In this document: piece after piece, positions 2,819-54,955 of the stretch | Position numbering within the stretch: the stretch's first letter is position 1 | Layout of the letters: each line of letters starts with the position of its first letter | Assembly (NCBI GenBank): GCA_046290465.1 | Contig: JBKAGP010000001.1 | Location: 3,520,001-3,584,000 of the forward strand | DNA length: 64,000 bases | Reading direction: 5' to 3' | Source: Planctomycetota bacterium | GTDB lineage: Bacteria; Planctomycetota; UBA1135; UBA2386 | The notes under the pieces: generated by a model | What the model was told of the DNA's origin: nothing | Database searches by the model: none | Seen by the model: the letters and a program-made list of their open reading frames with translations, nothing else | Translations under genes and position numbers: made by a program

Positions 2819-4090
2819 TCACCGCACCGCGGTCAATCGCGCGCGACCGCGATCCAGCGTGACGCGGCAGCGGCTCAGCAGATCGATGCCAAGCACGCCG
2901 TGCACCGGGAAGACCTCGGCCCTGCCACGGTTTACGACCGGCAGCGTGACCTGCAGGAAGCGCGCGTCCGAGCAGCGCAGCACGAGATCTCGCACTTCTT
3001 TTACGGCCACCAGGCCGCCGCCGACCGTTCGCACGCGCCGGAACGACGGCACCGCGCGCTCGTCGCCACCGGGGATCCGCGACAGGCCGAGCGCGGTCAG
3101 GCTCGAATGGCTCGCGCCGGTGTCGAGCACGAACCACAACCGCGCGCCCTCGACCACCACCGGCACCAGGCAGCGCCCCTCGGCGCGCACGCACTGCACC
3201 GACTGCTGCACCGGCAGCCCGTGCGGCAGCGCCAGCACCACGCCGCCGCGTTCGGGGTCGACGGTCAGGCGGCAGGCGCCCAGCAGGTCGAGGCCGAGCA
3301 CGCCGCGGGGCACGCGCTCGGGGCCGCCGTGCAGGTCACGCAGCTTGAGCGCGCCGTCGGCGACCACCAGCACCGGCACGGCGCCGATGTCGACGTTGCC
3401 GACACGGAACTGCGGCAACAGCCCGACCTCGATCGGCAGGCGCCGACCGGCTCCGTCCAGCGCCTCGCCAGCGCGGCGCCGGCTGCGCACCCCGAGCTCG
3501 TCGGCGAAGCTCGCCGCGACCGTCGTCATCGACGTGCCGGTGTCGATCGCGAACGGACGCAGCCGGTCTTTCGTGCCGCAGACGAACTCCGGAACCTGCC
3601 CCGGCAGCAGCGGCTGCTCGGTCAAGAGCGGTCCGGAGAACCGCCGCACGAACGGCAACGCCGACGAGATCACCGCAAACGCGCGGCGCCGTTCGGCGTG
3701 TTCTGCCAGTGCGCCGGCGAGCAGCGGCGTCGAGCTCTCGCCCCAACGCCCCGACTGGAACAGCTGGTCGCCGAGCTGCCCGCGCAGATCGGCGACCAGG
3801 TCGTCGTCGCCGTCCGCCCGCGCCAGCCGGATCGCCGCCATGCGTTCCTGCACCGCCAGGTCGTCGTTCCACGTCAGGTCGGCGAGCAGCGCGCTCCACT
3901 GGGCCGCGCGGGTGTGCCGCGGATCCCGCTGGCGCGCCTCGACGACCAGTTCGCGCGCCTCGTCGAGACGGCCTTCGCCGAGCGCCTTCGACGCCAGCGC
4001 CAGCTGCTCGTCGATCGTGCGCAGCGCGCCGCGACCGACACAGGCCGACAGCAGCGCACACGCGAGCAGCCCTGCGGACGCGCGGCGCAT
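2819..4090 (-). CDS. Lipoprotein with TPR-like N-terminus and two retropepsin-like aspartyl protease domains
   Basis: Start MRRASAGLLACALLSAC (lipobox) overlaps upstream stop (TGATG); FAIDTGTS and FVLDTGAS motifs, each followed by GVLGxDLL. Confidence 0.85.
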   Translation of the reverse strand: MRRASAGLLACALLSACVGRGALRTIDEQLALASKALGEGRLDEARELVVEARQRDPRHTRAAQWSALLADLTWNDDLAVQERMAAIRLARADGDDDLVADLRGQLGDQLFQSGRWGESSTPLLAGALAEHAERRRAFAVISSALPFVRRFSGPLLTEQPLLPGQVPEFVCGTKDRLRPFAIDTGTSMTTVAASFADELGVRSRRRAGEALDGAGRRLPIEVGLLPQFRVGNVDIGAVPVLVVADGALKLRDLHGGPERVPRGVLGLDLLGACRLTVDPERGGVVLALPHGLPVQQSVQCVRAEGRCLVPVVVEGARLWFVLDTGASHSSLTALGLSRIPGGDERAVPSFRRVRTVGGGLVAVKEVRDLVLRCSDARFLQVTLPVVNRGRAEVFPVHGVLGIDLLSRCRVTLDRGRARLTAVR

Positions 4091-41639: not shown

Positions 41640-41693
41640 GGCCGGCACCCGACGCGCGGCAGGTTGCCGCGCGGTTCGGCTACGTTGGCTGCC

Positions 41694-44600
41694 ATGGCCC
41701 GCCTCGGCACCCTCGTCGCGCTGGCGCTGCTGCTGCTCGCAGCCGCGTTCTGGCTGTTCGACCGGCAACCGGACGCCCCGATCGGCGGCCCCGACGCCCC
41801 GCCAGGATCCGGCTCCCCGCGAGCCGATCTCGCCGCCGCCGACGCCGACCTGCAGACCGGCAACGAACTCGATACGCTGCGCACCGACGCCGAGGTCGTT
41901 CGCGACGCGCCGGACTACGTCGTGCGCGGCACCGTGGTCGCCGACGAGCGGGCGCCGGACCTCTCGCAGGTGCGGGTGCTCGCCTACGAAGGGCAGCCAC
42001 AGGACGCGTCGGGGATCGTCACCGGCGCGATGGCGACGATGCAGCGCGGTGCGCGCGCGCCGGGATTCGTGCTGAAGGGCGACCCGATCGCCGAGGGCCG
42101 GGTCGCCGCCGACGGCGCGTTCGAACTGCGGACGCGCACGCCGCACCTGCGCGTCACGATCGACCACGACTTCTACCTGCAGCCGGTGCCCGAGGTCGTG
42201 CACGTCAACGCCGACACCCGCCGGCACCACCTCGTGCTGTCGCCGCTGCTCGGCGCCAAGGTCCGCGGCCGCCTGCTCGGCCCGCGCAGCGGCGACGTCG
42301 ACGCCGTCAAGCTGACGCTCGAGCCCGACCCGATGGCGATCCTGCGGGACGCGCGGCTGATGATGGCCGCGATGCTCGCCGCGACGCGGCCCGAGGCGCG
42401 GCCGCGCGACGACGGCACGTTCTCGTTCCGCGCCGTCGCACCCGGCGCGCAGCTCGCGTTCGCGGTCGACGGCAGCGGCGTGTCGGGCCGCACCCAGGAA
42501 CCGGCGCTGCAGGCCGGCGAGGTGCGCGACGTGGTGCTGCCGGTGCAGGACGCGGCGATCCTGATCGTCGAGGTCGTCGACGAACGGGGCGGTCCGCTGG
42601 CCGGGGTGCGCGTGCACGTTCGCCCCGCCGGCGGCGCCGGCATGACCGCGATGCTGCAGGCCCACGCCGAACGTACCGACGAGCGCGGCCACTGCAGGTT
42701 CGATCGCCTGGCGGCCGGCGCCTTCCAGGTCGAGGCCAACGCGCGCGGCCGCACCACCGCCCGCCGCGACCTCGACCTCGAACGGCGCGACGAGCCGCAC
42801 CGGCTGCAGCTGACGCTCGGCGTGGGCGGCGTCGTGACCGGCATCGTGCGCACGCCCGACGGCCGACCGCTGGCCGGCGCGCGGGTCGCGCACCACCCCG
42901 CGGCCGACATCCCGCTGCTCGGCGACCTGACCGACCAGCTCGGCCCCGAATACCTGCGCCAGATCGCGCAGGAGGGCGCCGAGACCGACGAGTCGGGTCA
43001 CTTCCGACTGACCGGCATCTCGGACCAGGATCCGTTCCTGGTGGTCGGCGCGCACGAGGACTTCGGCGCCGGTGTGGCGCGCGAGGTTGCGATCGGCGAC
43101 GAAGACGTGGTGGTCGAGCTGCAGCGGCTGAGCGGCGTGCTCGGCACCGTCACGCGCGCCGACGACCACCAGCCGGTGCCGCGGTTCTCGGTGTCGATCG
43201 TGCGCACGGCGTTCCTGGTCATGAAGATGCCGGTCGCCTCGGACACGTTCGTCACCGCCGACGGCACGTTCTCGCTGCGCGGCATCAGCCCCGGCAGCTA
43301 CACCGTCGAGGTCGAGGCGGACGGCTTCGGGACGTTCGAGAAGGGCATCAAGGTCGTCGAAGGGCAGGACGTCGTCGTCACCGGCATCGAACTGCAGCGC
43401 GCCGCCAGCATCCGCGGGGTGGTGCGCGACGAGCACGGCAACCCGATCGCCAACGCGATGGTGCAGAAGCGCAAGGGCGCGATGGCCGACAACCCGATGC
43501 TGACGATGCTGATGGGCTCGGGTTCGCGCACGTTCAGCGACGCCACCGGTCGGTTCGTGCTCGAACCGGTCAGCCCCGGCAAGCTGCAGCTGCTCGCCAC
43601 CGCGAACGGCTTTGCCAGCGGCCGCAGCGAACGCGTCGCGGTCGCGCCGGGACAGCAGCTCGAAGGCGTCGTGATCGAGCTGGGCCACGGTGGTTCGATC
43701 GACGGCGTGCTGCGCTGGAACGCCCAGCAGAACCCCGAAGACTTCCTGCTGCTGGCACAGCACCAGGTCACGCAGAACACCGCCACCGCCGAGCTGCGGC
43801 CTGACGGCACCTTCCGGATCGACAACCTGGACCCCGGCTCCTACCAGGTGCAGGCGATGCCGGCCGCGCTGATGAGCGGCTTCCAGGGACACGACTGGCG
43901 CCCGGGCGAAGGCCTCGACATCGGCGAGATGATGAAGCAGGTCACCGACAACGTCGTCTCGCAGCGCTGCCGGGTGCGCGCCGACGAGACCGCCAAGGTC
44001 GAACTCGACGTCCGTGACCTGGCGATCGGCGCGCAGTGGATCGTGCACGTCGACGTCGCCGGCGAGCCGCAGGCCGCCGGCATGGTCGAGGCGACGTCGC
44101 TCGAGACCGGCGCGCTGCGCGTCGCGATGATCGAGCACGGCACCGCGATCTTCGGTCGTGTGCACCCGGGCCGCCACCGCATGCAGGTGCGCTCCGGCCT
44201 GACGATGACGCCGGTCGGTGCGCCGCAGGACCTCGAGTTCCCCGCGGGCGCCGACGAGCACACATCGACGTTGTCGCTGCCCGGCGGCGAGCTGCGCGGC
44301 CGCGTCGTCGACGACCGCACCGGCGAGCCGCTGGCGCGCGCGATCGTGCGGCTGCACCACGACGGCCACGGCGAACGCGACGACCCGATCGGCATGTGCC
44401 TGACCGATGCCGACGGCGGCTTCCGGTTCACGGGGCTGACCGACGGCAGCTACAGCCTGGTGGCCGCCGAGCCGCTGCTGGGTGCCGGCCAGAACACCGC
44501 GTCGCGCCGTTCGGGCATCGAGGTCCGCACCGGCACCAGCCGCGATCCGGTCGAACTGCGTTCGCGGCCCGCGGCGGGCGCGACGGTGCAGGTCACGACC

Positions 44601-45098
44601 GCGGACGGCCGGCCGATCCGCGGCGCGACCGTGCTGTGCGTCGACGACGAAGGCCGTCCGCTCGGCAACCTCGGCGTCGCCGCGACCGGCCCCGACGGCA
44701 CCGCGTCGTTCGGCGGCATGGCCGACGGTCCGGCCCGCGTCGTCGGCAGAGCGCCCGGCTACGCGCCCGGGGCGACCCTGGTGCAGACGCTGTCGGCTGA
44801 GGCCAACACGCGCTTCGAACTGCGGCTCGGCGACGGTGCTCCGACCCGCATCTCGGTCGTCGACGGACTCGGCAAGCGGCTGCGCGGCGCGACCGTCACG
44901 GCGCGCGTCGGCGACCACCCGTGGCTGCCGCCGATGCTGCTGGTGCAGGCGATCGGGCCCGACGGCACCATCGACGTCGGCGAGCTCGGCCCGGGCCGCT
45001 GGAGCTTCCGCGTCCACCATCCGTCGGTCGGCACGATCACCCGCGAACGCACGATTTCGGGGACGGCGCCGGTGACCATCGTCGTCAGCAAGCCCTGA
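41694..45098 (+). CDS. Membrane-anchored protein with multiple carboxypeptidase-regulatory-like repeats
   Basis: N-terminal TM; repeated G.V.D..G.PL.GA.V...TD..G.F....L..G.Y units. Confidence 0.85.
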   Translation: MARLGTLVALALLLLAAAFWLFDRQPDAPIGGPDAPPGSGSPRADLAAADADLQTGNELDTLRTDAEVVRDAPDYVVRGTVVADERAPDLSQVRVLAYEGQPQDASGIVTGAMATMQRGARAPGFVLKGDPIAEGRVAADGAFELRTRTPHLRVTIDHDFYLQPVPEVVHVNADTRRHHLVLSPLLGAKVRGRLLGPRSGDVDAVKLTLEPDPMAILRDARLMMAAMLAATRPEARPRDDGTFSFRAVAPGAQLAFAVDGSGVSGRTQEPALQAGEVRDVVLPVQDAAILIVEVVDERGGPLAGVRVHVRPAGGAGMTAMLQAHAERTDERGHCRFDRLAAGAFQVEANARGRTTARRDLDLERRDEPHRLQLTLGVGGVVTGIVRTPDGRPLAGARVAHHPAADIPLLGDLTDQLGPEYLRQIAQEGAETDESGHFRLTGISDQDPFLVVGAHEDFGAGVAREVAIGDEDVVVELQRLSGVLGTVTRADDHQPVPRFSVSIVRTAFLVMKMPVASDTFVTADGTFSLRGISPGSYTVEVEADGFGTFEKGIKVVEGQDVVVTGIELQRAASIRGVVRDEHGNPIANAMVQKRKGAMADNPMLTMLMGSGSRTFSDATGRFVLEPVSPGKLQLLATANGFASGRSERVAVAPGQQLEGVVIELGHGGSIDGVLRWNAQQNPEDFLLLAQHQVTQNTATAELRPDGTFRIDNLDPGSYQVQAMPAALMSGFQGHDWRPGEGLDIGEMMKQVTDNVVSQRCRVRADETAKVELDVRDLAIGAQWIVHVDVAGEPQAAGMVEATSLETGALRVAMIEHGTAIFGRVHPGRHRMQVRSGLTMTPVGAPQDLEFPAGADEHTSTLSLPGGELRGRVVDDRTGEPLARAIVRLHHDGHGERDDPIGMCLTDADGGFRFTGLTDGSYSLVAAEPLLGAGQNTASRRSGIEVRTGTSRDPVELRSRPAAGATVQVTTADGRPIRGATVLCVDDEGRPLGNLGVAATGPDGTASFGGMADGPARVVGRAPGYAPGATLVQTLSAEANTRFELRLGDGAPTRISVVDGLGKRLRGATVTARVGDHPWLPPMLLVQAIGPDGTIDVGELGPGRWSFRVHHPSVGTITRERTISGTAPVTIVVSKP

Positions 45099-45147
45099 CG
45101 GGATCGCGTTGCCGGCCGGGTTCGCGTACCGTTCCTGCCCGCAGTTC

Positions 45148-46041
45148 ATGGCTGATCGTTCGTCGTTGCAGTTCTGGGTCGGCCGCTTCCTGCTCGGCGT
45201 CGGCATCCTGGTCGCCGCCGGCCTCGGCTTCGTGCCGCGCGTGCTGCACCTCAAGGACCCGCTCGGCCTCGCCACCGTCGCGCTCGGCTTCGTCGGCTTC
45301 TACATCGCGCTGGCCGCGGTCGCGCCGATGGCGCGCATCCGCAGCTACCGTTCGCGCACCCGCAAGGCCTGGAACGACGCCGCCCGCACCGCCTGGGACC
45401 GCGCCTCGCTGCCGCGCCGCATCTACTACCTGCTGTTCGCGGTCGCGCAGGCCGACGGCCCGATCACGCAGAGCGAACGCGACATCGTACGCACGTTCCT
45501 GCTGCCGCGGTTTCCGATCGAGGACCACGAGATCCGCACCTGGGAGCGGCAGCCGCTGCAGGTCAACGACCGCGTCGGCCTCGCCGCGCGCATCGCGGTC
45601 GGCCTCGACGAGGCCGAGCTCGACACGCTGTTCTGCTGGTGCGCGATGGTCGCGTTCGCCGACGGCCGCTTCCGACCGGACGAGCACGAGGCGCTGCACG
45701 AGATCGCGCGCGGCCTCGACATCCCGCCGCCGCGCGCGCGCATGCTGTTCCACCTGGCGCGGGCGCAGTTCCTGGCCGGATCGCATCGCGACGACGGCCG
45801 GGGTCGGCAGCGCAGCCAGCCGCAGGACGCCTCGCCGCCCAACGCGCGCATCGACGCACTCGCCGTGCTCGGCCTGCCGGTGCACGCGTCCGAGGACCAG
45901 ATCCGCAAGCGCCACCGCGAATTGGTGCGCAAGTTCCACCCGGACGCGCAGCCCAACCTCGGCGAGGCCGCGCAACAGGAGGCGACCGAGCGCTTCACGG
46001 CCATCCAGCGCGCCTACGAAGTGCTGACCAAGCCGGCCTGA
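45148..46041 (+). CDS. DjlA-like co-chaperone (TM + TerB-like + J domain)
   Basis: AVAQADG, AFADG...E; C-terminal J domain with KFHPD. Confidence 0.85.
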   Translation: MADRSSLQFWVGRFLLGVGILVAAGLGFVPRVLHLKDPLGLATVALGFVGFYIALAAVAPMARIRSYRSRTRKAWNDAARTAWDRASLPRRIYYLLFAVAQADGPITQSERDIVRTFLLPRFPIEDHEIRTWERQPLQVNDRVGLAARIAVGLDEAELDTLFCWCAMVAFADGRFRPDEHEALHEIARGLDIPPPRARMLFHLARAQFLAGSHRDDGRGRQRSQPQDASPPNARIDALAVLGLPVHASEDQIRKRHRELVRKFHPDAQPNLGEAAQQEATERFTAIQRAYEVLTKPA

Positions 46042-46059: not shown

Positions 46060-46467
46060 ATGGTCACGATCCAAGCCACCTACGAGGGCGACCTCTGCTG
46101 CACCGCCGTGCACGGTCCGTCCGAGCACACCATCCAGACCGACGCGCCCAAGGACAACATGGGCCTCGGCCGCTACTTCTCCCCCACCGACCTGGTGGCG
46201 ACCGCGCTTGCGACCTGCATCCTGACCACGCTCGGCATCGTCGCGAAGCGGCGCGAGATCGACCTGAAGGGTGCCAGGGCCACGGTCGAAAAGCACATGA
46301 ACGCCGACCCGCGGCGGATCGGCCGGCTGCCCGTCGAACTGACGATCGAGGGCAGCTACAGCGACGAACAGAAGACCGTGCTCGAACGCGCCGCCAACAC
46401 CTGCCCGGTGCACAAGAGTCTGCACCCGGACATCGACGCGACGATCACGTTCTGCTGGCTGGGCTGA
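46060..46467 (+). CDS. OsmC family protein
   Basis: TDAPKDN.G.G..FSPTDL.ATALATC, CPVHKSL. Confidence 0.92.
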   Translation: MVTIQATYEGDLCCTAVHGPSEHTIQTDAPKDNMGLGRYFSPTDLVATALATCILTTLGIVAKRREIDLKGARATVEKHMNADPRRIGRLPVELTIEGSYSDEQKTVLERAANTCPVHKSLHPDIDATITFCWLG

Positions 46468-46479
46468 GCGGAACGTCGC

Positions 46480-47031
46480 TCACTCGCTGGCGGCCTTCAC
46501 GCTGGCGGCCTGCACGCTGGCGGCCTGCACGCTGGCGGCCCGCACCGTCGCCGGGGCGTCGGTGACGTAGTAGACGTCGGGCCAGCTCAGCAGCCCCCAC
46601 AGCAGGCTCGCCTCGGTCTCGACGCGCCAGCCCGAAGGCACCTTGACGTCGTTGCGCTTGCGCTGCCACAAGCCCCACGCGGCGTGGGTCTGCTGCTCGC
46701 GTTCGTAGAGTTCCTTGCCCTGGCCGTAGTGGAACTTCTCGACGTCGCCGGCGAAGAACAGCGGCCCGTAGGCGTCGAAGTCGGTATAGGAGGTGCCGGC
46801 AGCAAGGTGCGGCTTCGATGGCCCGTAGATCTCGCCCTGCAGGTTGAGCAGCGGGATCCAGGTGAAGGCGCCGACCGAGTCGTCCTGGTCGGGATCGTCG
46901 GCGCGCGCCTTCTCGAGCGCGGCCAGGTCGGGCAGGCCGTCGCGCTGCGGCCAGGCGTCGTCGTAGGTGGAACAGGCGGACAGGAACAGCGCGGCGATCC
47001 CGCCCGCGCACGGCAGCAGACTAGCTCTCAT
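46480..47031 (-). CDS. Hypothetical lipoprotein with C-terminal (VQAAS)n repeat
   Basis: Lipobox FLSAC. Confidence 0.65.
   Translation of the reverse strand: MRASLLPCAGGIAALFLSACSTYDDAWPQRDGLPDLAALEKARADDPDQDDSVGAFTWIPLLNLQGEIYGPSKPHLAAGTSYTDFDAYGPLFFAGDVEKFHYGQGKELYEREQQTHAAWGLWQRKRNDVKVPSGWRVETEASLLWGLLSWPDVYYVTDAPATVRAASVQAASVQAASVKAASE
46485..46545. repeat. 15-bp tandem repeat, 4 copies
   Basis: CGCTGGCGGCC at 46485, 46500, 46515, 46530. Confidence 0.9.
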
Positions 47032-47095
47032 CTGGGTGTCTCTCATCGGACGGCGCCGCCGAGCGCACGTCGCCGGACCGTGTTGCCGGCAGCGA

Positions 47096-47452: not shown

Positions 47453-47821
47453 TCAGCGGCGGAATCTGACCCGGATCGGACCGCGGGCGGTGCTCGGGTC
47501 GACCATCCGGCCGCGCTGCGTGATCTCGACGGCACCGGCGTCCACGAGCCGCCGGGCCGCCATCCGGGCGCGCTCCATCAGCGGTCGCCAGTCCTCGGCG
47601 ACCGCCCGCGCCGCCTCGGACGGGCAGATGGTCGCGCCGGCCGCGCGCTGCTCGAGCAGTTCGACGATCTTGCGTTCGAGCGCGGCATCGACGCCGTCCG
47701 GCCGGCTGCGGCGGCAGCGCTCTCCGCAGTAACGGACCTGCTCCCAGCAGCCCGCCCACTTCTTGCGCCAGGCGAACGTCCGGCCGCAGCGGGCGCAGAT
47801 CTTCTCTCGCCGTTCGGGCAC
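47453..47821 (-). CDS. DUF2256 + DUF3253 domain protein
   Basis: KIC..CGR.F.WRKKW...W..VRYC..RCR and TICPSEAAR...WR.LM...ITQ.G...RGPIR; start uncertain. Confidence 0.85.
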
Positions 47822-47883
47822 GCCGTGCGGTTCGGCCGCGGCCCCCGCCGGGATGCCCGCGCCCAAGAAAAACCGGACCGCCC

Positions 47884-47910
47884 AAAACCCCGTTCGCCGG
47901 CCGTCGTCTT
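47884..47910 (+). promoter_or_regulatory. Putative ECF-sigma autoregulatory promoter
   Basis: AAAC-N16-CGTCT, about 20 bp upstream of the ECF gene ATG. Confidence 0.5.
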
Positions 47911-47928
47911 CACCGGCACGATCGATTC

Positions 47929-48480
47929 ATGAGCACTGCCGAACCGATCCTCGCAGAGCTGTTTCAGGCCCATCGGAGGGGCCTGGCGGGGGCGGTGCGC
48001 AGTGTGCTGGGTCCTTCGGAGGACGTGACCGAAGTGCTGCAGGACGCCTTCCTCAAGTGTTGGCGCGCGTGGCAACATGGCACCCGACCGAACGACCCGG
48101 TGGCATGGATCTTCGTCATCGTCTGGAACGCCGCAACCGACGCGAGGAGACGTCGGCAGCGACGACCCAACCACGAACCACTCGACGAGGAACGAACCGT
48201 GTCCGTCACCGCCAGAACCACCCCTTCGCCGTCACACGCGCTCGAGCAGCGCGAGGCGGTTGCAGAGGCCCAGGCCGCCGTCGCCCGGCTCAACGAGGAC
48301 GACCAGCAGGTGTTCCTGCTGCGCGTCGCCGGCGAGCTCAGCTACGAGGCCGTCGCCGCATCGCTGAGCATCCCCGTCGGCACCGCCAAGACCCGCATGC
48401 GCCGCGCGCTGATGCAGCTGCGCAGCATGCTCGGCGCCAAGGCCACGACCACCAACTTCACCAAGGAGAGCCTGCAATGA
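47929..48480 (+). CDS. ECF RNA polymerase sigma factor
   Basis: EVLQDAFLKCW, AWIF.I..N...D..R (region 2); LSYE.VA..L.IPVGTAKTRM.RA (region 4). Confidence 0.93.
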   Translation: MSTAEPILAELFQAHRRGLAGAVRSVLGPSEDVTEVLQDAFLKCWRAWQHGTRPNDPVAWIFVIVWNAATDARRRRQRRPNHEPLDEERTVSVTARTTPSPSHALEQREAVAEAQAAVARLNEDDQQVFLLRVAGELSYEAVAASLSIPVGTAKTRMRRALMQLRSMLGAKATTTNFTKESLQ

Positions 48481-51400
48481 GCGCGCCCGGCAACTGGAGC
48501 CCCGAAGAACGCGAGCAGCTGGTGCAAGAGCTGCTCGAACTGCACTTCGGCTGTCACGAAGCCCCTGACCAACTCGAGGCGCGCCTCGCCCAGGACCCGG
48601 CGCTGCGCGCGCTGCAGGCAGAGGTGGCGGGCCAGGCCGGCGTCATCGAGGAGGCCGTCAAGCCCGAGCAGGCGCGCCTCGAACTGCCCGCCGACGACGT
48701 GCACGCAAGCGCCGCTCGCCGCCCGCGCTGGTACCACACGCCGATCGGCCGCGTGACGATGGCCTTTGCCGCCGCCGCGCTCGTGGTCCTCGGCCTGCTC
48801 GGCCTCGAGCGCGTACACGACTGGCAGCTCGACGGCTACCGCGAGGACCACCTGCACCTGACCGTCAGCGCACCGCGCGCGGTCCCCGCCGGTGCCCCGT
48901 GGAGCTTCACCGTCGAGACCAAGGACCTGTCCGGCGGCCCCGCCGAATGCCGCGTGCGCTGGACCGCCTTCGGGGAGAAGGGCGAGGCGCTCGCCAGCGG
49001 CGAGGCGCCGACCGAGGCCGGCAGCGCAGTCATCGCGATGGGCAGCGACCTGGCCGTGCCGACGCGCGTCGAGGTCGTTGCGAGCCACCACGCCGACGAG
49101 GCGAAGCAGATCTTCGCGCTGTCGACGGCCTACGCCAGCCCGCTCGTGCACGTCAGCACCGATCGCCCGGTCTACCGTCCGGGCGAGCCGGTGTTCGTGC
49201 GCGTCACCGTGCTCGACCGCGTCTCGCGGCTGCCGCTGAAGCGGCCGTCGCCGATGTATGCCGAGCTGATCGACGCCAAGGGCGCATCGATCGCCAACGA
49301 CTTCGACGGTGTCGTGCCGAACGGCGTCGGCACGTTCCGCATGCAGGTCCCGGCCGACAGCGCCGGCGGCGTGCACCAGGTCCGCGTGCGCTCGCAGATG
49401 CAGCTGTTCCCGGAGGAGACCGCCGAGCTCGTCGTGCGCTCGTTCCGCAACCCGCAGCTCGATCAGGAGATCGTGCTCGATCGCAAGAGCTACGCGCCCG
49501 GCGCGCGCGGCGCGGCGACGGTGACCGCGACGCGGCTCGGCGACGGCCAGCCGTGCTCGCTCGCCAAGGTGCGCGGCGCGGTGATCGTCGACGGCAACGA
49601 GGTCTGGAGTGAGGAGAGCGGCCTCGGAGCTCAGGGCGAGATCACGTTCCGCTTCCAGATCCCGAAGGAGATCGAACGGGGAGCGGCGCGCTTCGTCGCG
49701 CAGGTGACGGACGGCGGCGTCGTCGAGTCGGCGATCGAGCCGTTCGTCGTGCCGACGGGGAAGGTCGCGGTGGCGGCCTTCCCCGAGGGTGGCGAGCTGG
49801 TCGCCGGCATCGAGAACGGCCTCTACCTCGAGTGCACCGACGCGCTCGACCGCCCGATCGACACCACCGGCGAGCTGATCGACGCCGACGGCCGCCGCGT
49901 CGCGTCGTTCCGCACGCAGCACCAGGGCCGCGTGCGGATGACGTTCGTGCCCGAGAAGGGCGCCACCTACCGCGTCCGCGTCGCCGGCAAGGCCGAGACC
50001 TTCGAGCTGCCGGCGGTGCGCGAGTCCGGCGTCGCGATGCGGCTGCTCGGCGACGACGTCGGCGCCGGCCAGCCGCTGCGCATGGCGCTCGGCGGCCGCG
50101 GCAACGGCCCGTGGGTGCTCGGCGTGTTCTGCCGCGGCGTGATGGTCGCGCAGACGACGCTGCGGCCGAACGACAACGGCGAACTGCACGCGCGCCCCGA
50201 GATCGCGCTGCCCGACACCGCGATCGGCGTGCTGCGCGCGACCGTCTTCGACCGCGAGCTCAAGCCGGTCGCCGAGCGCCTGCTGCGCCGCCGCAGCACG
50301 CACACGCTCGACGTGCGCCTGGCCACCGAGCACGACGTGCTGGCTCCCGGCGACCGCCAGCAGGTCAAGGTCACCGCGATCGACGAGACCGGTGAGCCAA
50401 CCCGCGCCGTGCTCGGCGTGCGCTGCACCGACGTCGCCGCGACGTCGATGGGCGACGAGCCGCGCATCTCGCTGGTCGACCAGGCGATGCTGTTCGGCGA
50501 CGTGCACGAGATGGAGGACCTCGGCGACTTCTTCCTGTCCAACGAGGCGGGTGGACGCAACGCCGACCTCTTGCTCGGCACGCGCGGCTGGCGCCGCTTC
50601 GTCTGGCGCAACGACGCCGCCGCCAAGCAGGCGATCGTCGACGCCGGCGACGCCGGCAAGGGCATCCTGGCGCGCGAGGGCTTCTCGCAGACGCCGCAGG
50701 TGCGCAGCAACCTGAAGGCCGCGATGGCGCCGTTCGCGGAGGCGCAGGAGCGCGTGCGCGACTCGCGGCAGCTGCTCGCGGGCATGGCCACGCTCGGCAT
50801 CATGCTGCTGCTGTTGCTGATCGTCGCCGAACTGGTCGCGTGGGGCCTGCGCAGCTGGCGCAGCGTGTCCGCGTCGACACAGGTGTTCGCCGGCATCGTG
50901 GTCGCGGTCCTGCTGTTCGGCTCCTTCTCGGTGCTACAGCTGTTCGGCTCGCAGCTGCTGGAGCCGGCGGACGGCGCCGCGATGGCCCCGGCGCGGAGCG
51001 GCGAAGCCGTCGACTTCGAAGGACCGTCGATGTTCGCCACGCACGCCCAGCCACTCGCTGCACCGGCGTGGCGCGGCCTGCAAGCCGGCAGGTACTTCAA
51101 CGACGGCATTGCCGGCGACATCTCGTTCGACTACTTCGGCATCGGCGCCACCGCCGGCGGTGGCCAGATCGACCTGCCCGTCGTGCACCGGTTCTCGTCT
51201 CGCTTCGACGACGTGCAACCGTCGCTCTTCCTGCCGCCGCAGATCCGCGAGATCCCGAGTGAGGAGGCCGAAGAACTCCTCGGCGAAGCCGCCCCGCGTT
51301 CGGATGCCTACTTCGCGCCCGCGTTCCGCTACGACCCCAGGACGATTCTGCAGAACTACAAGCAGCACTGGATCCAGCGCCAGTACGCCCACCGCCACGT

Positions 51401-53513
51401 CGCCTCCGAGCAACGCCGCGACTTCACCCCGACGATCTACTGGGACACGCTGCTGCTGACCGACGAGCGCGGCGAGGCGACGATCGCGTTCGACACCACC
51501 GACGCCGTCACCACCTGGCAGGTCGAAGCTGACGCGCACGTCGCGATCGGCGACACCGGCCGCCTCGGCCAGGCGTCGACGACGTTCACGACGCAGCTGC
51601 CGCTGCAGATCGAGCCGAAGCTGCCCGACGAGGTCTCGTGCGGCGACCGCCTGCAGCTGCCGGTCGCGGCAATCCTCAAGCAGGCCCGCGCCGGCGAGGT
51701 CGCGCTGACCGTCAAGCTCGGCCCCGGCCTGCGCCTCGGCAAGGACGCGCCCAGCGCGATCGCGCTCGAGGGCCAGAGCGGCGGCACCGGCCGCGGCCGG
51801 GCCCTGCTGCCCGTCGAGGTCACCGACTTCGTCGGCACCACCACGATCGAGCTGGAGGCTCGCGCCGGCGGCTTCGTCGACCGTGTGCGCCACACGCTGC
51901 AGGTCGCGCCGCGCGGCTTCCCCCACCGCCGCTCGGCCGGCGGCCAGGCGATCGCCGGCACCGATGGCCGCTGGTCGGTGACGATCCCGGACGACGCGGT
52001 GCCGGGCTCCGGCCAGGCGACGCTGGTCGTCTACCCGTCGCCGATCGCCGCGCTGACCGAAGGCCTCGAGGGCATCCTGCGCGAACCGCACGGCTGCTTC
52101 GAGCAGACCAGCTCGTCGAACTACCCCAACACGCTGGTGCTCCGCCTGATCGAGGCCAGCGGCGACGACCTGCCGCGGATCGCGGCGCGCGCCCGCGACC
52201 TGCTGCCGCGCGGCTACCGCCGCATCGTCGGCTACGAGTGCCCCGAGAAGGGCTACGAGTGGTGGGGCAAGGACCCCGGTCACGAGACGCTGACGGCCTA
52301 CGGCCTGCTGCAGTTCCACGACATGTCGAAGGTCTACGACGTCGACGTGGAGATGGTCGATCGCACCCGCAGGTGGCTGCTCGGACGGCGTGACGGCGAA
52401 GGCAACTTCGTGCGACCGACCGGCAACAGCCACAGCTTCGGTGGCCGTGACCCGAAGGTCACCAACGCCTACGTCACCTACGCGCTGCTGCAGACCGGCA
52501 CGCCGGAGGCGGAGCTGAAGGTCGAGATCGACGCGCTGGTCGCGCGCATCGAGCAGGCCGACGCCTACGAGCTGGCGCTGATCGCGTGCGCGCTCGCCCT
52601 CACCGAGCGCGTCGAGGCCGCCGAGGCGCGCGACCGCCTCGCGTCGCTGCAGCAGGACGACGGCTCGGTGCCGGGCGCCAGGACGACGATCACGATGAGC
52701 GGCGGCCGCGACCGGATCGTCGAGACCACCGGCTTCGCCGTGCTGGCGTGGCTGCGAGACCCGGCCAAGGCGGGCCACGTGCGCAAGGCCGTCGCCTACC
52801 TGCATGCGGCGCGCGGCGGCCACGGCACGTTCGGCGCCACGCAGGCGACCATCGTGGCGCTGCGAGCGCTGACCGAATACGCGACCGTCAGCCGCACGAT
52901 GCGGGAGGCCGGTGCGATCCAGGTCTTCGACGGCGAGCGCCTGCTGGCTCGCCAACCGTTCGCGGCGCACGACGTCGGGCCGATCAAGTTCGAACTCTGG
53001 AACGAACTCACGCCAGGCGCACACTCGCTGCGCATCGAGCTCACCGGCGGCGGCAAGTCGCCGATGCCCTGGTCCGGCGAGATCGCCTACCACGCCGAAC
53101 TTCCGGCCACCGACCCGCTGACGCAGACGGCGGTGACGACCCGGCTGCGCGAGGCGAGCGTCGAAGAAGGTCGCACCGTGGCCCTTGACGTCACCATCGA
53201 GAACGTCACCGACGACGAGCTGCCGACCCCGATGGCGATCGTCGGCCTGCCGGCCGGCCTCGACATCTCGACCGAGGTGCTCGAGGACATGAAGAAGGCC
53301 CAGCGGTTCGACTACTGGGAACTGCAGGGCCGCGAGCTGGTGCTCTACTGGCGCAAGCTCGATGCCACCGAGCGGCGCGAGCTGACGTTCGACCTGACGG
53401 CGCGCATCCCGGGCACGTCGCGCGGGCCAGCGTCGCGGTCCTACCTCTACTACACGCCGCAGCAGAAGCAGTGGGCGCAGCCGCTGGAGATCGAGGTGCG
53501 CCCAGCGGGATGA
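48477..53513 (+). CDS. Alpha-2-macroglobulin family protein with anti-sigma-like N-terminus and internal TM hairpin
   Basis: STDRPVYRPGE (MG2), FPEGG.LV, RRDF..TIYW, LREPHGCFEQ thioester, LTAY, TQAT..AL.AL; ATGA overlap with the sigma gene. Confidence 0.9.
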   Translation: MSAPGNWSPEEREQLVQELLELHFGCHEAPDQLEARLAQDPALRALQAEVAGQAGVIEEAVKPEQARLELPADDVHASAARRPRWYHTPIGRVTMAFAAAALVVLGLLGLERVHDWQLDGYREDHLHLTVSAPRAVPAGAPWSFTVETKDLSGGPAECRVRWTAFGEKGEALASGEAPTEAGSAVIAMGSDLAVPTRVEVVASHHADEAKQIFALSTAYASPLVHVSTDRPVYRPGEPVFVRVTVLDRVSRLPLKRPSPMYAELIDAKGASIANDFDGVVPNGVGTFRMQVPADSAGGVHQVRVRSQMQLFPEETAELVVRSFRNPQLDQEIVLDRKSYAPGARGAATVTATRLGDGQPCSLAKVRGAVIVDGNEVWSEESGLGAQGEITFRFQIPKEIERGAARFVAQVTDGGVVESAIEPFVVPTGKVAVAAFPEGGELVAGIENGLYLECTDALDRPIDTTGELIDADGRRVASFRTQHQGRVRMTFVPEKGATYRVRVAGKAETFELPAVRESGVAMRLLGDDVGAGQPLRMALGGRGNGPWVLGVFCRGVMVAQTTLRPNDNGELHARPEIALPDTAIGVLRATVFDRELKPVAERLLRRRSTHTLDVRLATEHDVLAPGDRQQVKVTAIDETGEPTRAVLGVRCTDVAATSMGDEPRISLVDQAMLFGDVHEMEDLGDFFLSNEAGGRNADLLLGTRGWRRFVWRNDAAAKQAIVDAGDAGKGILAREGFSQTPQVRSNLKAAMAPFAEAQERVRDSRQLLAGMATLGIMLLLLLIVAELVAWGLRSWRSVSASTQVFAGIVVAVLLFGSFSVLQLFGSQLLEPADGAAMAPARSGEAVDFEGPSMFATHAQPLAAPAWRGLQAGRYFNDGIAGDISFDYFGIGATAGGGQIDLPVVHRFSSRFDDVQPSLFLPPQIREIPSEEAEELLGEAAPRSDAYFAPAFRYDPRTILQNYKQHWIQRQYAHRHVASEQRRDFTPTIYWDTLLLTDERGEATIAFDTTDAVTTWQVEADAHVAIGDTGRLGQASTTFTTQLPLQIEPKLPDEVSCGDRLQLPVAAILKQARAGEVALTVKLGPGLRLGKDAPSAIALEGQSGGTGRGRALLPVEVTDFVGTTTIELEARAGGFVDRVRHTLQVAPRGFPHRRSAGGQAIAGTDGRWSVTIPDDAVPGSGQATLVVYPSPIAALTEGLEGILREPHGCFEQTSSSNYPNTLVLRLIEASGDDLPRIAARARDLLPRGYRRIVGYECPEKGYEWWGKDPGHETLTAYGLLQFHDMSKVYDVDVEMVDRTRRWLLGRRDGEGNFVRPTGNSHSFGGRDPKVTNAYVTYALLQTGTPEAELKVEIDALVARIEQADAYELALIACALALTERVEAAEARDRLASLQQDDGSVPGARTTITMSGGRDRIVETTGFAVLAWLRDPAKAGHVRKAVAYLHAARGGHGTFGATQATIVALRALTEYATVSRTMREAGAIQVFDGERLLARQPFAAHDVGPIKFELWNELTPGAHSLRIELTGGGKSPMPWSGEIAYHAELPATDPLTQTAVTTRLREASVEEGRTVALDVTIENVTDDELPTPMAIVGLPAGLDISTEVLEDMKKAQRFDYWELQGRELVLYWRKLDATERRELTFDLTARIPGTSRGPASRSYLYYTPQQKQWAQPLEIEVRPAG

Positions 53514-53574
53514 CTGTCGCGATGACTGTCGCGATGACTGTCGCGATGACTGTCGCGATGACTGTCGCGATGAC
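53509..53574. repeat. Perfect 12-bp VNTR, (GATGACTGTCGC) x5.5
   Basis: Read directly; overlaps the macroglobulin stop codon. Confidence 0.97.
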
Positions 53575-53599: not shown

Positions 53600-54955
53600 A
53601 TGCGCCTCGCCGCCGCCATCCTCCTCGCGCTGACCGCGACCGCCGCCGGTCAGGCCCCCGCGAACTACTACAACACGGTCGTCACCGCGAACGCCGCGCA
53701 GCTGCGCGCGACCCTGCACGCGGTGATCGACGACCACCAGCGGTTCCCCTACACGTCGGGCGGCACCGACACGTGGGACATCCTCGAGGACGCCGACCAG
53801 GATCCGGGCAACGCATCGCGCATCCTCGACGTCTACCGCAACGCGTCGTACGCGAAGGTCGGCGGCGGCAACTCCAACTACAACCGCGAGCACGTCTGGC
53901 CCAACAGCTACGGCTTCCCGAACGACGGCGGCGGCAACTACCCCTACACGGACTGCCACAACCTGTTCCTCTGCAACATCGGCTACAACGGCCAGCGCGA
54001 CCGCAAGCCGTTCGACAACGGCAGCGCCAGCTGGGTCGAGCTGACGACCGTCGGCGGCGGCAGCGGCAGTTACCCGGGCAACTCCAACTGGCGCACGACG
54101 AGCAACTCGCCGGGCGGCTTCGAGGTCTGGCAGGACCGCCGCGGCGACATCGCGCGCGCGCTGTTCTACATGGACGTTCGCTACGAGGGCGGCACGCACC
54201 AGAACGGCAGCGCCGAGCCGGACCTGATCCTGACCGACACGGTGTCGTTGATCACCAGCAGCGCGACCGGCAACAACGAGTCGGTGGCCTACATGGGCAA
54301 GCTCAGCGTGCTGCTGCAGTGGCACGCGCAGGACCCGGTCGACGGCAAGGAGATGGCACGCAACGACGCGGTGTTCGGCTACCAGGGCAACCGCAACCCG
54401 TTCGTCGACCACCCGGAGTGGGTCGACTGCATCTTCGCCAACCAGTGCAGCACCTCGACGTCGCAGCGCGAGCCCGAGGTCTGGATCAACGAGCTGCACT
54501 ACGACAACGCCGGCGCCGACCTCAACGAGTTCGTCGAACTGGCCGGCCGCGCCGGCGAACGCATCGACGGCTGGATGCTGGTCGCCTACGACGGTGCCAC
54601 CGGCCAGGCCTACGACCGCGTCGCGCTGCGCGGCACGTTCGCCGACCAGCAGAACGGGTTCGGCACGTTGTCCTTCGCGTTCCCCGGCCTACAGAACGGT
54701 CTCGACGGGGTCGCCGTGGTGACCTCGACCGGAGTCGTGATGCAGTTCCTCAGCTACGGCGGCACGTTCGTCGCCAGCAACGGCGCCTGCAAGGGCCGCA
54801 GCTCGGTCGACATCGGCGTCACCGAAGGCGCCTCGACGCCGGTCGGGTTCTCGCTGCGGCTCTCCGGGACCGGCAGCGGCTACGCGCAGTTCGCCTGGCA
54901 GCCGCCGTTCGTGCAGACCCCCGGCACCCCGAACGTCAGCCAGACCTTCCAGTAA
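53600..54955 (+). CDS. Secreted endonuclease I/Bsn family nuclease with C-terminal lamin-tail-like domain
   Basis: NREHVWP, DCHNL, GDIARALFYM, QGNRNPFVDHPE; WINELHYDN..D..EFVEL. Confidence 0.9.
   Translation: MRLAAAILLALTATAAGQAPANYYNTVVTANAAQLRATLHAVIDDHQRFPYTSGGTDTWDILEDADQDPGNASRILDVYRNASYAKVGGGNSNYNREHVWPNSYGFPNDGGGNYPYTDCHNLFLCNIGYNGQRDRKPFDNGSASWVELTTVGGGSGSYPGNSNWRTTSNSPGGFEVWQDRRGDIARALFYMDVRYEGGTHQNGSAEPDLILTDTVSLITSSATGNNESVAYMGKLSVLLQWHAQDPVDGKEMARNDAVFGYQGNRNPFVDHPEWVDCIFANQCSTSTSQREPEVWINELHYDNAGADLNEFVELAGRAGERIDGWMLVAYDGATGQAYDRVALRGTFADQQNGFGTLSFAFPGLQNGLDGVAVVTSTGVVMQFLSYGGTFVASNGACKGRSSVDIGVTEGASTPVGFSLRLSGTGSGYAQFAWQPPFVQTPGTPNVSQTFQ

Follow-up and report, generated by a model that had tools for sequence, protein, structure and literature searches.

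Can one bacterial membrane protein both capture a protease and report the capture to transcription? The question is raised by a two-gene locus in a 64,000-nucleotide stretch of DNA (the window) from a Planctomycetota bacterium (assembly GCA_046290465.1, contig JBKAGP010000001.1, positions 3,520,001 to 3,584,000). A gene for a sigma factor of the extracytoplasmic function (ECF) type, of 183 aa (47929-48480, + strand; Pfam Sigma70_r2 E=2e-13, r4_2 E=1e-12; TIGR02937 above its cut-off) shares the letters ATGA at 48477-48480 with a gene for a 1678-aa protein (48477-53513, + strand), an overlap reported in an earlier note on this DNA and borne out by the open reading frame (ORF) coordinates. The larger protein matches Pfam MG2, A2M and TED and has 204 homologues at E<=1e-20. 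The earlier note read it as an anti-sigma factor fused to an alpha-2-macroglobulin (A2M), a claim for which synteny with a natural control, ZAS-bearing orthologues, a predicted complex and topology now give strong support. None of the three outcomes that the earlier note named as refuting it was observed. The fusion is real, conserved and widespread, and apparently undescribed; it appears to be at once a novel variant among membrane anti-sigma factors, whose outer domain is a macroglobulin, and a novel form of macroglobulin that spans the membrane. For the further proposal, that the pair is a two-gene trap-and-report module in which cleavage of a bait frees the sigma factor, which remakes the trap, we estimate a probability of about 0.5.

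Among homologues, the presence of an ECF gene tracks the N-terminus of the macroglobulin protein. A profile search matched 110 of 401 Planctomycetota genomes, and part of these matches were examined as loci (first 19 of full length, next sets of 40 and 20 regions drawn from the ranking), together with 12 regions from close relatives. In this survey, of the kind the earlier note had called for, an ECF gene lay 5' on the same strand in 54/54 genes with a cytoplasmic segment of at least 60 aa before the first transmembrane (TM) helix (37 overlapping, 14 within 120 nt and three at 238-537 nt), compared with 0/34 loci (35 genes) whose products begin with a signal peptide or signal anchor. N-termini were classified by eye, with knowledge of the ECF results; two loci had less than 500 nt of upstream flank (L078, L131), two had ambiguous starts (L094, L096), and one locus with no flank (L025), one with no motif match (L126) and duplicates were dropped from the pairing count. 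On a FastTree tree of the C-terminal half (66 rows, with partial, duplicate and UGA genes left out and kin not independent), the ECF label changed five times, at least four of these changes being forced by strong branches, against a mean of 19.8 for shuffled labels. With so few changes, the pairing follows the N-terminus through several events. The partner sigma factors are themselves of several types, with scores against the clade profile of 189-260 vs 29-166 and differing best matches in NCBIfam.

How far does the N-terminal domain resemble known anti-sigma domains? Residues 9-72 (48501-48692, + strand) are modelled as three helices, with residues 9-60 at pLDDT>90, and form a predicted zinc-free relative of the ZAS fold. 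As in class I anti-sigma factors, this three-helix cytoplasmic domain is followed by a TM helix oriented N-in, and the gene lies directly 3' of, and coupled to, the ECF gene. A cleaved signal was ruled out: the first hydrophobic helix begins at residue 93, after a helical domain that is acidic and conserved, unlike in relatives with true signal peptides. The Pfam zf-HC2 cut-off is passed by 7/33 N-termini, five of them from the window protein's clade, and the HxxxCxxC zinc motif of ZAS domains proper is present in five orthologues (L029, L030, L049, L052, L053) and not in the window protein. Comparison of window-type with ZAS-type N-terminal profiles gave a weak link (E=0.002; its score of 18.9 compares with 13.5 or less in 20 reordered controls). 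Searching the PDB with a profile of 29 N-termini, ZAS members included, placed RslA (3hug_B) first at E=0.021 and RsiW (5wuq_C) fourth at E=0.27, both weak matches. A fold search with the N-terminal domain returned nothing significant (best Z 5.7; PupR 4.8, RsiW 4.6 and RslA 4.5 among unrelated rows), and Foldseek gave no match at E<=0.001.

We then consider the predicted complex. The sigma factor modelled with residues 5-75 of its partner, an analysis that the earlier note had proposed, scored 0.82 vs 0.04 for the best control; the mark applied is reached by 116/157 solved and 2/215 mismatched pairs, counts that are only roughly valid with the alignments used. Runs agreed in at least 91% of contacts, the partner had a pLDDT of 89, and the predicted contacts touch both sigma2 and sigma4, with Cys26 in the interface. 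Because similar complexes have already been solved, this pass shows likeness, not binding. From sequence and models together, we consider it very likely that the N-terminal domain holds the ECF sigma factor in the cytoplasm. The loss of the ZAS cysteines in the window's clade, and the lack of any anti-sigma Pfam match to the window protein's N-terminus, speak against such a role and would suit a vestigial segment or a mere topology determinant, the pair then being a sigma factor and its target gene. This explanation appears very improbable: the domain is as conserved as the thioester domain (mean identity to the window protein across 97 full-length homologues of 62% at residues 9-60 and 63.5% in the thioester domain, vs 30% in the adjoining linker; the bait stands at 10%), an ORF and Pfam look at the flanks found no second anti-sigma gene beside the sigma gene, the complex prediction passes, and ECF pairing divides 54/54 from 0/34.

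The earlier note had counted a single TM helix, and here it fell short: there are three (residues 93-111, 766-790 and 802-820), the hairpin before the bait having been missed. TM1 (48753-48809, + strand) is a predicted N-in/C-out signal anchor within a modelled helix at 89-124, reached through a linker at residues 62-83 that is disordered in the AlphaFold2 model. Its mean net charge of +3.7 before vs +0.5 after the helix in 107 homologues fits this orientation, so that the topology prediction the earlier note had asked for puts the N-terminal domain in the cytoplasm. The TM2-TM3 hairpin (50772-50936, + strand) lies between the LNK region and the bait, with helices spanning 746-792 and 799-827 in the model and a short basic loop, whose charge across homologues (K+R 2.7 vs D+E 0.2) fits a cytoplasmic location; its residue E785 is conserved in 74/97 homologues. 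Two insert helices were found in 107/120 best homologues (of 204 at E<=1e-20), by a count bounded by motifs that some hairpins visible in alignments escaped, and 95/120 combine TM1 with both two insert helices and the thioester motif. The thioester motif is present in 118/120, the two exceptions being partial sequences.

Variation in these inner parts bears on whether the macroglobulin senses anything at all. It could instead be cargo, with the fusion merely tying trap production to another stress, such as redox or metal chemistry at Cys26/His27 or the ZAS zinc, membrane stress acting through the insert of 2-8 TM helices, or a generic proteolytic response to envelope stress. This accords with the recruitment of several unrelated ECF types, with an insert that ranges over 0-8 helices, and with the conservation of Cys26 (88/97 homologues) and His27 (90/97), the former in the predicted interface. 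We nonetheless regard it as rather improbable, as every activation would destroy or shed a fused effector with no gain, and as the extracytoplasmic domain of the anti-sigma factors RsiV and DdvA has been shown or proposed to do the sensing, in the available text of the studies describing them (PMC5014341, PMC11506125).

The outer part of the protein is a macroglobulin in full. The AlphaFold2 model covers residues 1-1060 (46 sequences, pLDDT 81.5); the CUB domain, TED and MG8 were assigned from sequence. Residues 126-744 (48852-50708, + strand), predicted to be periplasmic, comprise MG1-MG5, the first half of MG6 and LNK, with five and a half MG domains modelled at 126-652 before a LNK-like region; Pfam MG2 matches residues 224-312, and the best Foldseek matches are CD109, C5, C3 and TEP1. 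The bait-like region (residues 825-960; 50949-51356, + strand) is disordered and hypervariable, with pLDDT<50 over most of its length; in the model, disorder spans 825-951 and is followed by the second half of MG6 (MG6b), and the spacing from TM3 to MG6b ranges from 79 to 202 aa in 93 homologues. MG6b-MG7 (51414-51911, + strand; Pfam A2M at residues 986-1064, and the model) precedes the TED (52053-52880, + strand; Pfam TED at 1193-1468), whose intact GCFEQ the earlier note had correctly placed at 52092-52106 (residues 1206-1210). His1319 (52431-52433) aligns with an A2ML1 histidine. MG8 (53124-53510, + strand; weak A2M_recep/bMG10 matches) carries a Tyr-Tyr pair at 1658-1659. The thioester G, C, E and Q are invariant in 97/97 full-length homologues, as are the MG8 tyrosines, whose presumed role is to shield the thioester; the position of the bait is likewise kept in 97/97.

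The order of MG ring, CUB, TED and MG8 with CxEQ is that of the A2M/thioester superfamily, as is the insertion of the bait in MG6 after LNK; in relatives, Pfam A2M_BRD and A2M flank the insert. Best sequence matches in the PDB were A2ML1, CD109, A2M and TEP1, with no bacterial A2M among 35, and Foldseek ranked CD109 first and the E. coli A2M (ECAM) 38th. By these sequence and fold matches, the macroglobulin part is a complete animal-type (CD109/A2ML1-like) macroglobulin, not a YfhM-type one, a point that the earlier note had missed. Thioester formation and protease trapping by the fusion protein are predicted.

Alternatively, the trigger might be the thioester itself. In this explanation the macroglobulin is a sensor, but one set off, as in C3 and TEP1, by amines, hydroxyls or water under envelope stress, with collapse of the arm exposing a site-1 cut; the hydroxyls could come from an imported polysaccharide or from a phage or predator surface. 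His1319 is pertinent here, as a nearby histidine gives hydroxyl reactivity in A2ML1, C3 and C4B, and small amines alone trigger the A2M conformational change, in the available portions of the literature. A probable selenocysteine (Sec) at the thioester Cys of 19 homologues, nine of them ECF fusions, points to selection on the reactivity of the bond. We think this trigger unlikely. A long, disordered, hypervariable bait has been kept, the hallmark of a lure for proteases; if the presumed role of the invariant MG8 tyrosines is right, they point to a thioester that is shielded; and position 1319 is His in 57/97 homologues but Asp in 37/97.

The UGA variants came from a survey of 22 loci picked for a flagged internal stop. 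The very codon of the thioester Cys is TGA in 19 genes, which come from 15 genomes (L085:5501-5503, L096:5358-5360 and 17 further genes in L114-L132), two loci had TGC and one had no motif match; 9/19 of the UGA genes are ZAS fusions behind an ECF gene. SelB was found in all 11 UGA genomes tested and SelA in the other four, and since SelB occurs in 64/69 genomes tested it does not discriminate UGA carriers. The consensus SECIS for 17 UGA genes was weak (-0.19 kcal/mol), and most of these genes individually fold hairpins. From sequence, the UGA at the thioester Cys is probably read as selenocysteine, giving a selenoester. Five database proteins (P0176, P0183, P0201, P0205, P0216) stop just before the UGA position. 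The window's own copy has Cys at the thioester, and its genome encodes SelA (G000:C1:1310644-1311717).

Turning to output, the promoter that the earlier note saw 5' of the pair was recovered at 47884-47909 (+ strand; -35 AAAAC, N16, -10 CGTCT), 19 nt 5' of the sigma ATG, and is of ECF type and likely autoregulatory. The strict motif occurs 5' of 28/33 sigma genes of this ECF clade, and the remaining five have the -10 element. Scanning with a matrix trained on 27 homologous loci, with the own site left out, ranked this promoter as the top site of the 6.6-Mb genome at 24.8 bits; the reversed genome, used as control, held one site above 23 bits. The matrix revealed no larger regulon in the genome (seven sites above 19 bits vs four in the reversed genome), and neither did a regular-expression scan with crudely called gene starts (12 sites vs four in the control, those near a start being the own site and two before housekeeping-like genes). 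The sole promoter that stands out is thus that of the operon itself, which is the simplest output; weaker targets could escape detection.

These elements suggest how the pair could work as a trap-and-report module. The large protein would be a class I anti-sigma factor of the inner membrane, held there by TM1 and by the hairpin just before the bait. A foreign or mislocalised periplasmic protease would cut the disordered bait, the CUB-TED-MG8 arm would swing, and the thioester would capture the protease covalently; TM3 would keep a short stub, and the protease, tethered and still active, would sit at the membrane. The spent protein would then be cut again near TM1 and next within the membrane by an RseP-type protease, and a gene for an RseP-like M50 protease is present in the genome. 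Degradation of the anti-sigma domain would release the sigma factor, which would transcribe its own operon and replace the single-use trap. The logic would be that of RsiV, in its available description, with a protease in place of lysozyme. As far as the available text of three sources goes (PMC5764988, PMC9156758, PMC13069473), bait cleavage in the A2M family shifts MG7-CUB-TED-MG8 and uncovers the thioester, to which the protease becomes bound; the cleaved pieces remain together, and trapped proteases stay active on small substrates. By analogy with these proteins, protease-triggered signalling by the fusion protein has in our judgement an even chance of being correct.

Several observations weigh against this mechanism. 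The step from bait cleavage to sigma release is one that we infer. MG1-6 and LNK, where TM1 and TM2 attach, are mostly static in animal A2M-family members, in the available text of two structural sources (PMC13069473, PMC9156758); with a static ring and a disordered linker at 62-83, direct mechanical coupling is doubtful and the second cut must be assumed. In the literature available to us, insect TEPs of the same architecture are not known to inhibit proteases. Among the homologues, 23/120 matches start with a signal anchor, the membrane insert occurs without an anti-sigma domain or ECF gene in three loci (L104, L127, L128), and ECF-paired forms lack the hairpin in six (L066-L068, L087, L091, L116), so the hairpin is neither necessary for nor exclusive to signalling. 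With such forms, and with others that have 2-8 helices and no anti-sigma domain, it cannot serve as a universal transducer. The phylum of a Polyangiales genome supplied 20 loci, in which one ZAS-bearing homologue (L165) has upstream only an unconfirmed overlapping ORF of 136 aa; the other 15 thioester-motif genes in these loci gave no ECF match.

Relatives extend the architecture well beyond the window. The cultured species Roseimaritima ulvae encodes a protein of the same architecture (WP_068139880.1; no near-identical match among 301 genomes), Verrucomicrobiota proteins carry similar N-termini, and related fusions have 0-8 membrane helices at the bait position. In a deeper clade, 3-8 (mostly six) helices take the place of two at the bait (L097-L100, L102, L118, L120, L122, L123, L127, L128; P0123-P0242). 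Its N-termini vary between ZAS, a zinc-free helical domain and a signal anchor alone, and its named members include Verrucomicrobiota, Kiritimatiellae, Myxococcota and Thermoanaerobaculaceae. In three loci (L118, strand -, 2915-3452; L120; L123), the ECF gene is separated from the ZAS-macroglobulin gene by one or two small ORFs, each with a single hydrophobic helix. The last insert helix resembles a re-used export signal, with a lipobox-like end of TM3 in three Planctomycetia-type proteins (P0117, P0118, P0120), and in L093, L104 and L119 it looks prepilin-like. The C-terminal half of L121 appears to be encoded apart, in an ORF that has a signal-like start of its own. Processing of the chain may take place at the last insert helix, or the chain may have been born by fusion of two exported halves. 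Secreted relatives lack both MG1, their matches beginning at MG2, and the hairpin (L069-L085, L088-L090, L095, L103); on the tree, MG1 goes together with the hairpin, and L070 has two tandem copies.

The fusion gene is the single copy of its kind in the genome. A search of genome contigs with the single protein gave just three weak TED matches. An origin by frameshift or assembly artefact was ruled out, as about 100 full-length sequences, independent of one another, show the same uninterrupted fusion. Genes 3' of the fusion differ among related loci. In the window, the gene directly 3' (53600-54955, + strand) encodes a secreted endonuclease I with a weak lamin-tail match; it was rejected as a member of the system, being kept in just 4/40 loci examined, all of the same genus (L024, L027, L031, L032). 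A perfect 12-bp tandem repeat of 5.5 copies (53509-53574) begins at the fusion stop codon and was unseen in the downstream stretches of related loci. On the 5' side, a divergent DUF2256-DUF3253 gene (47453-47866) shares its intergenic region with the ECF promoter. Beyond it lie a lipoprotein-like ORF with no Pfam match (46480-47046, - strand) that ends in a 15-bp tandem repeat of 4.1 copies (46485-46545), an OsmC protein (46060-46467), a TerB-DnaJ membrane protein (45109-46041) and a carboxypeptidase-regulatory repeat protein (41664-45098).

A full-text literature search found no description of the fusion or of a Sec-containing macroglobulin, though the planctomycete ECF classifications (Wiegand 2020, Jogler 2012) lay outside it and may list the pair. 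The word 'macroglobulin' is absent from the available main text and supplement of an ECF classification (PMC7826278, Casas-Pastor 2021) and from the available supplements of PMC7406223 and PMC13326102; a 2026 A2M review (PMC12939704) contains none of the words 'sigma', 'transmembrane' and 'selenocysteine'. A CAGE preprint proved unrelated in its available part. Among relatives, automated annotation gives one the name 'anti-sigma factor RsiW' and others 'YfaS family'. A search of the ESM Atlas returned A2M/TEP clusters only. The locus touches on how bacteria detect foreign periplasmic proteases and on the purpose of bacterial macroglobulins, and with promoter, sigma factor and programmable bait all defined, both questions are testable with one reporter. 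It adds to the animal-like A2M/complement branch an integral-membrane architecture, with 0-8 helices at the bait, that was absent from the literature as far as our search covered it. More tentatively, and with odds somewhat short of even, these proteins may make up a widespread, undescribed class of covalent trap-and-report receptors, stitched into the inner membrane at the bait, wired to ECF factors and recruited repeatedly by different sigmas, in which cleavage by a protease and its capture are the signal. If true, the A2M/complement superfamily would have here its first member that spans the membrane and is coupled to transcription, with a selenoester in some lineages, and synthetic biology could gain a generic protease-to-transcription switch.

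How does the system compare with those already known? With the monomeric animal proteins A2ML1, CD109, TEP1 and C3/C4, its best matches, the macroglobulin shares the order MG1-6/LNK/bait/MG7/CUB/TED/MG8, the thioester with its aligned His, and the lack of the two extra N-terminal domains of bacterial A2Ms. The animal proteins, however, are secreted or anchored by glycosylphosphatidylinositol (GPI), and those compared, as far as their available descriptions go, have neither helices at the bait nor a cytoplasmic regulatory domain. Bacterial A2Ms of Type I (E. coli ECAM/YfhM, Salmonella Sa-A2M) share a periplasmic A2M fold and CxEQ, and Type II (P. aeruginosa MagD) a periplasmic A2M-family fold, according to the available text of PMC5764988. 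By contrast, the window protein is integral to the membrane and sigma-coupled, and has no lipobox, PBP1c neighbour or mag operon: it has 5.5 MG domains before LNK and neighbours of the DUF2256/DUF3253 and endonuclease I kinds with no pbpC, which sets it apart from Type I, and CFEQ and a two-gene rather than a six-gene unit, which sets it apart from Type II.

On the anti-sigma side, the protein resembles class I (ASD-I/ZAS) factors such as RsiW, RslA, RskA, MucA and RseA in the position of its gene immediately after the ECF gene, in translational coupling, in its three-helix domain predicted to bind sigma2 and sigma4, in its N-in TM helix and in a conserved, likely autoregulatory promoter. It differs from them in an outer part that is a thioester macroglobulin of about 1,500 aa, in its three membrane crossings (more in relatives) and in the loss of zinc ligands in its clade. 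DdvA, the partner of DdvS in Myxococcus xanthus, likewise joins a ZAS-type domain and a TM helix to an unusually large periplasmic module from the world of proteolysis, a bulky domain that blocks RseP until removed, in the available account (PMC11506125). The DdvA module is a caspase-like protease and the system controls a CBASS-CRISPR island, whereas here the module is a predicted trap, there are extra TM helices, and only the own operon was found as a target. By analogy, and judging from the available text of PMC5014341, the closest functional analogue is RsiV, which acts on sigmaV in Bacillus subtilis and other Gram-positives. RsiV is single-pass and binds lysozyme non-covalently, whereas a covalent, single-use trap with a bait is proposed here, and homology of the sensor domains is not expected; in both, one chain is, or here would be, anti-sigma factor, receptor and inhibitor of the attacking hydrolase, with release by regulated intramembrane proteolysis known for RsiV and proposed for the macroglobulin fusion.

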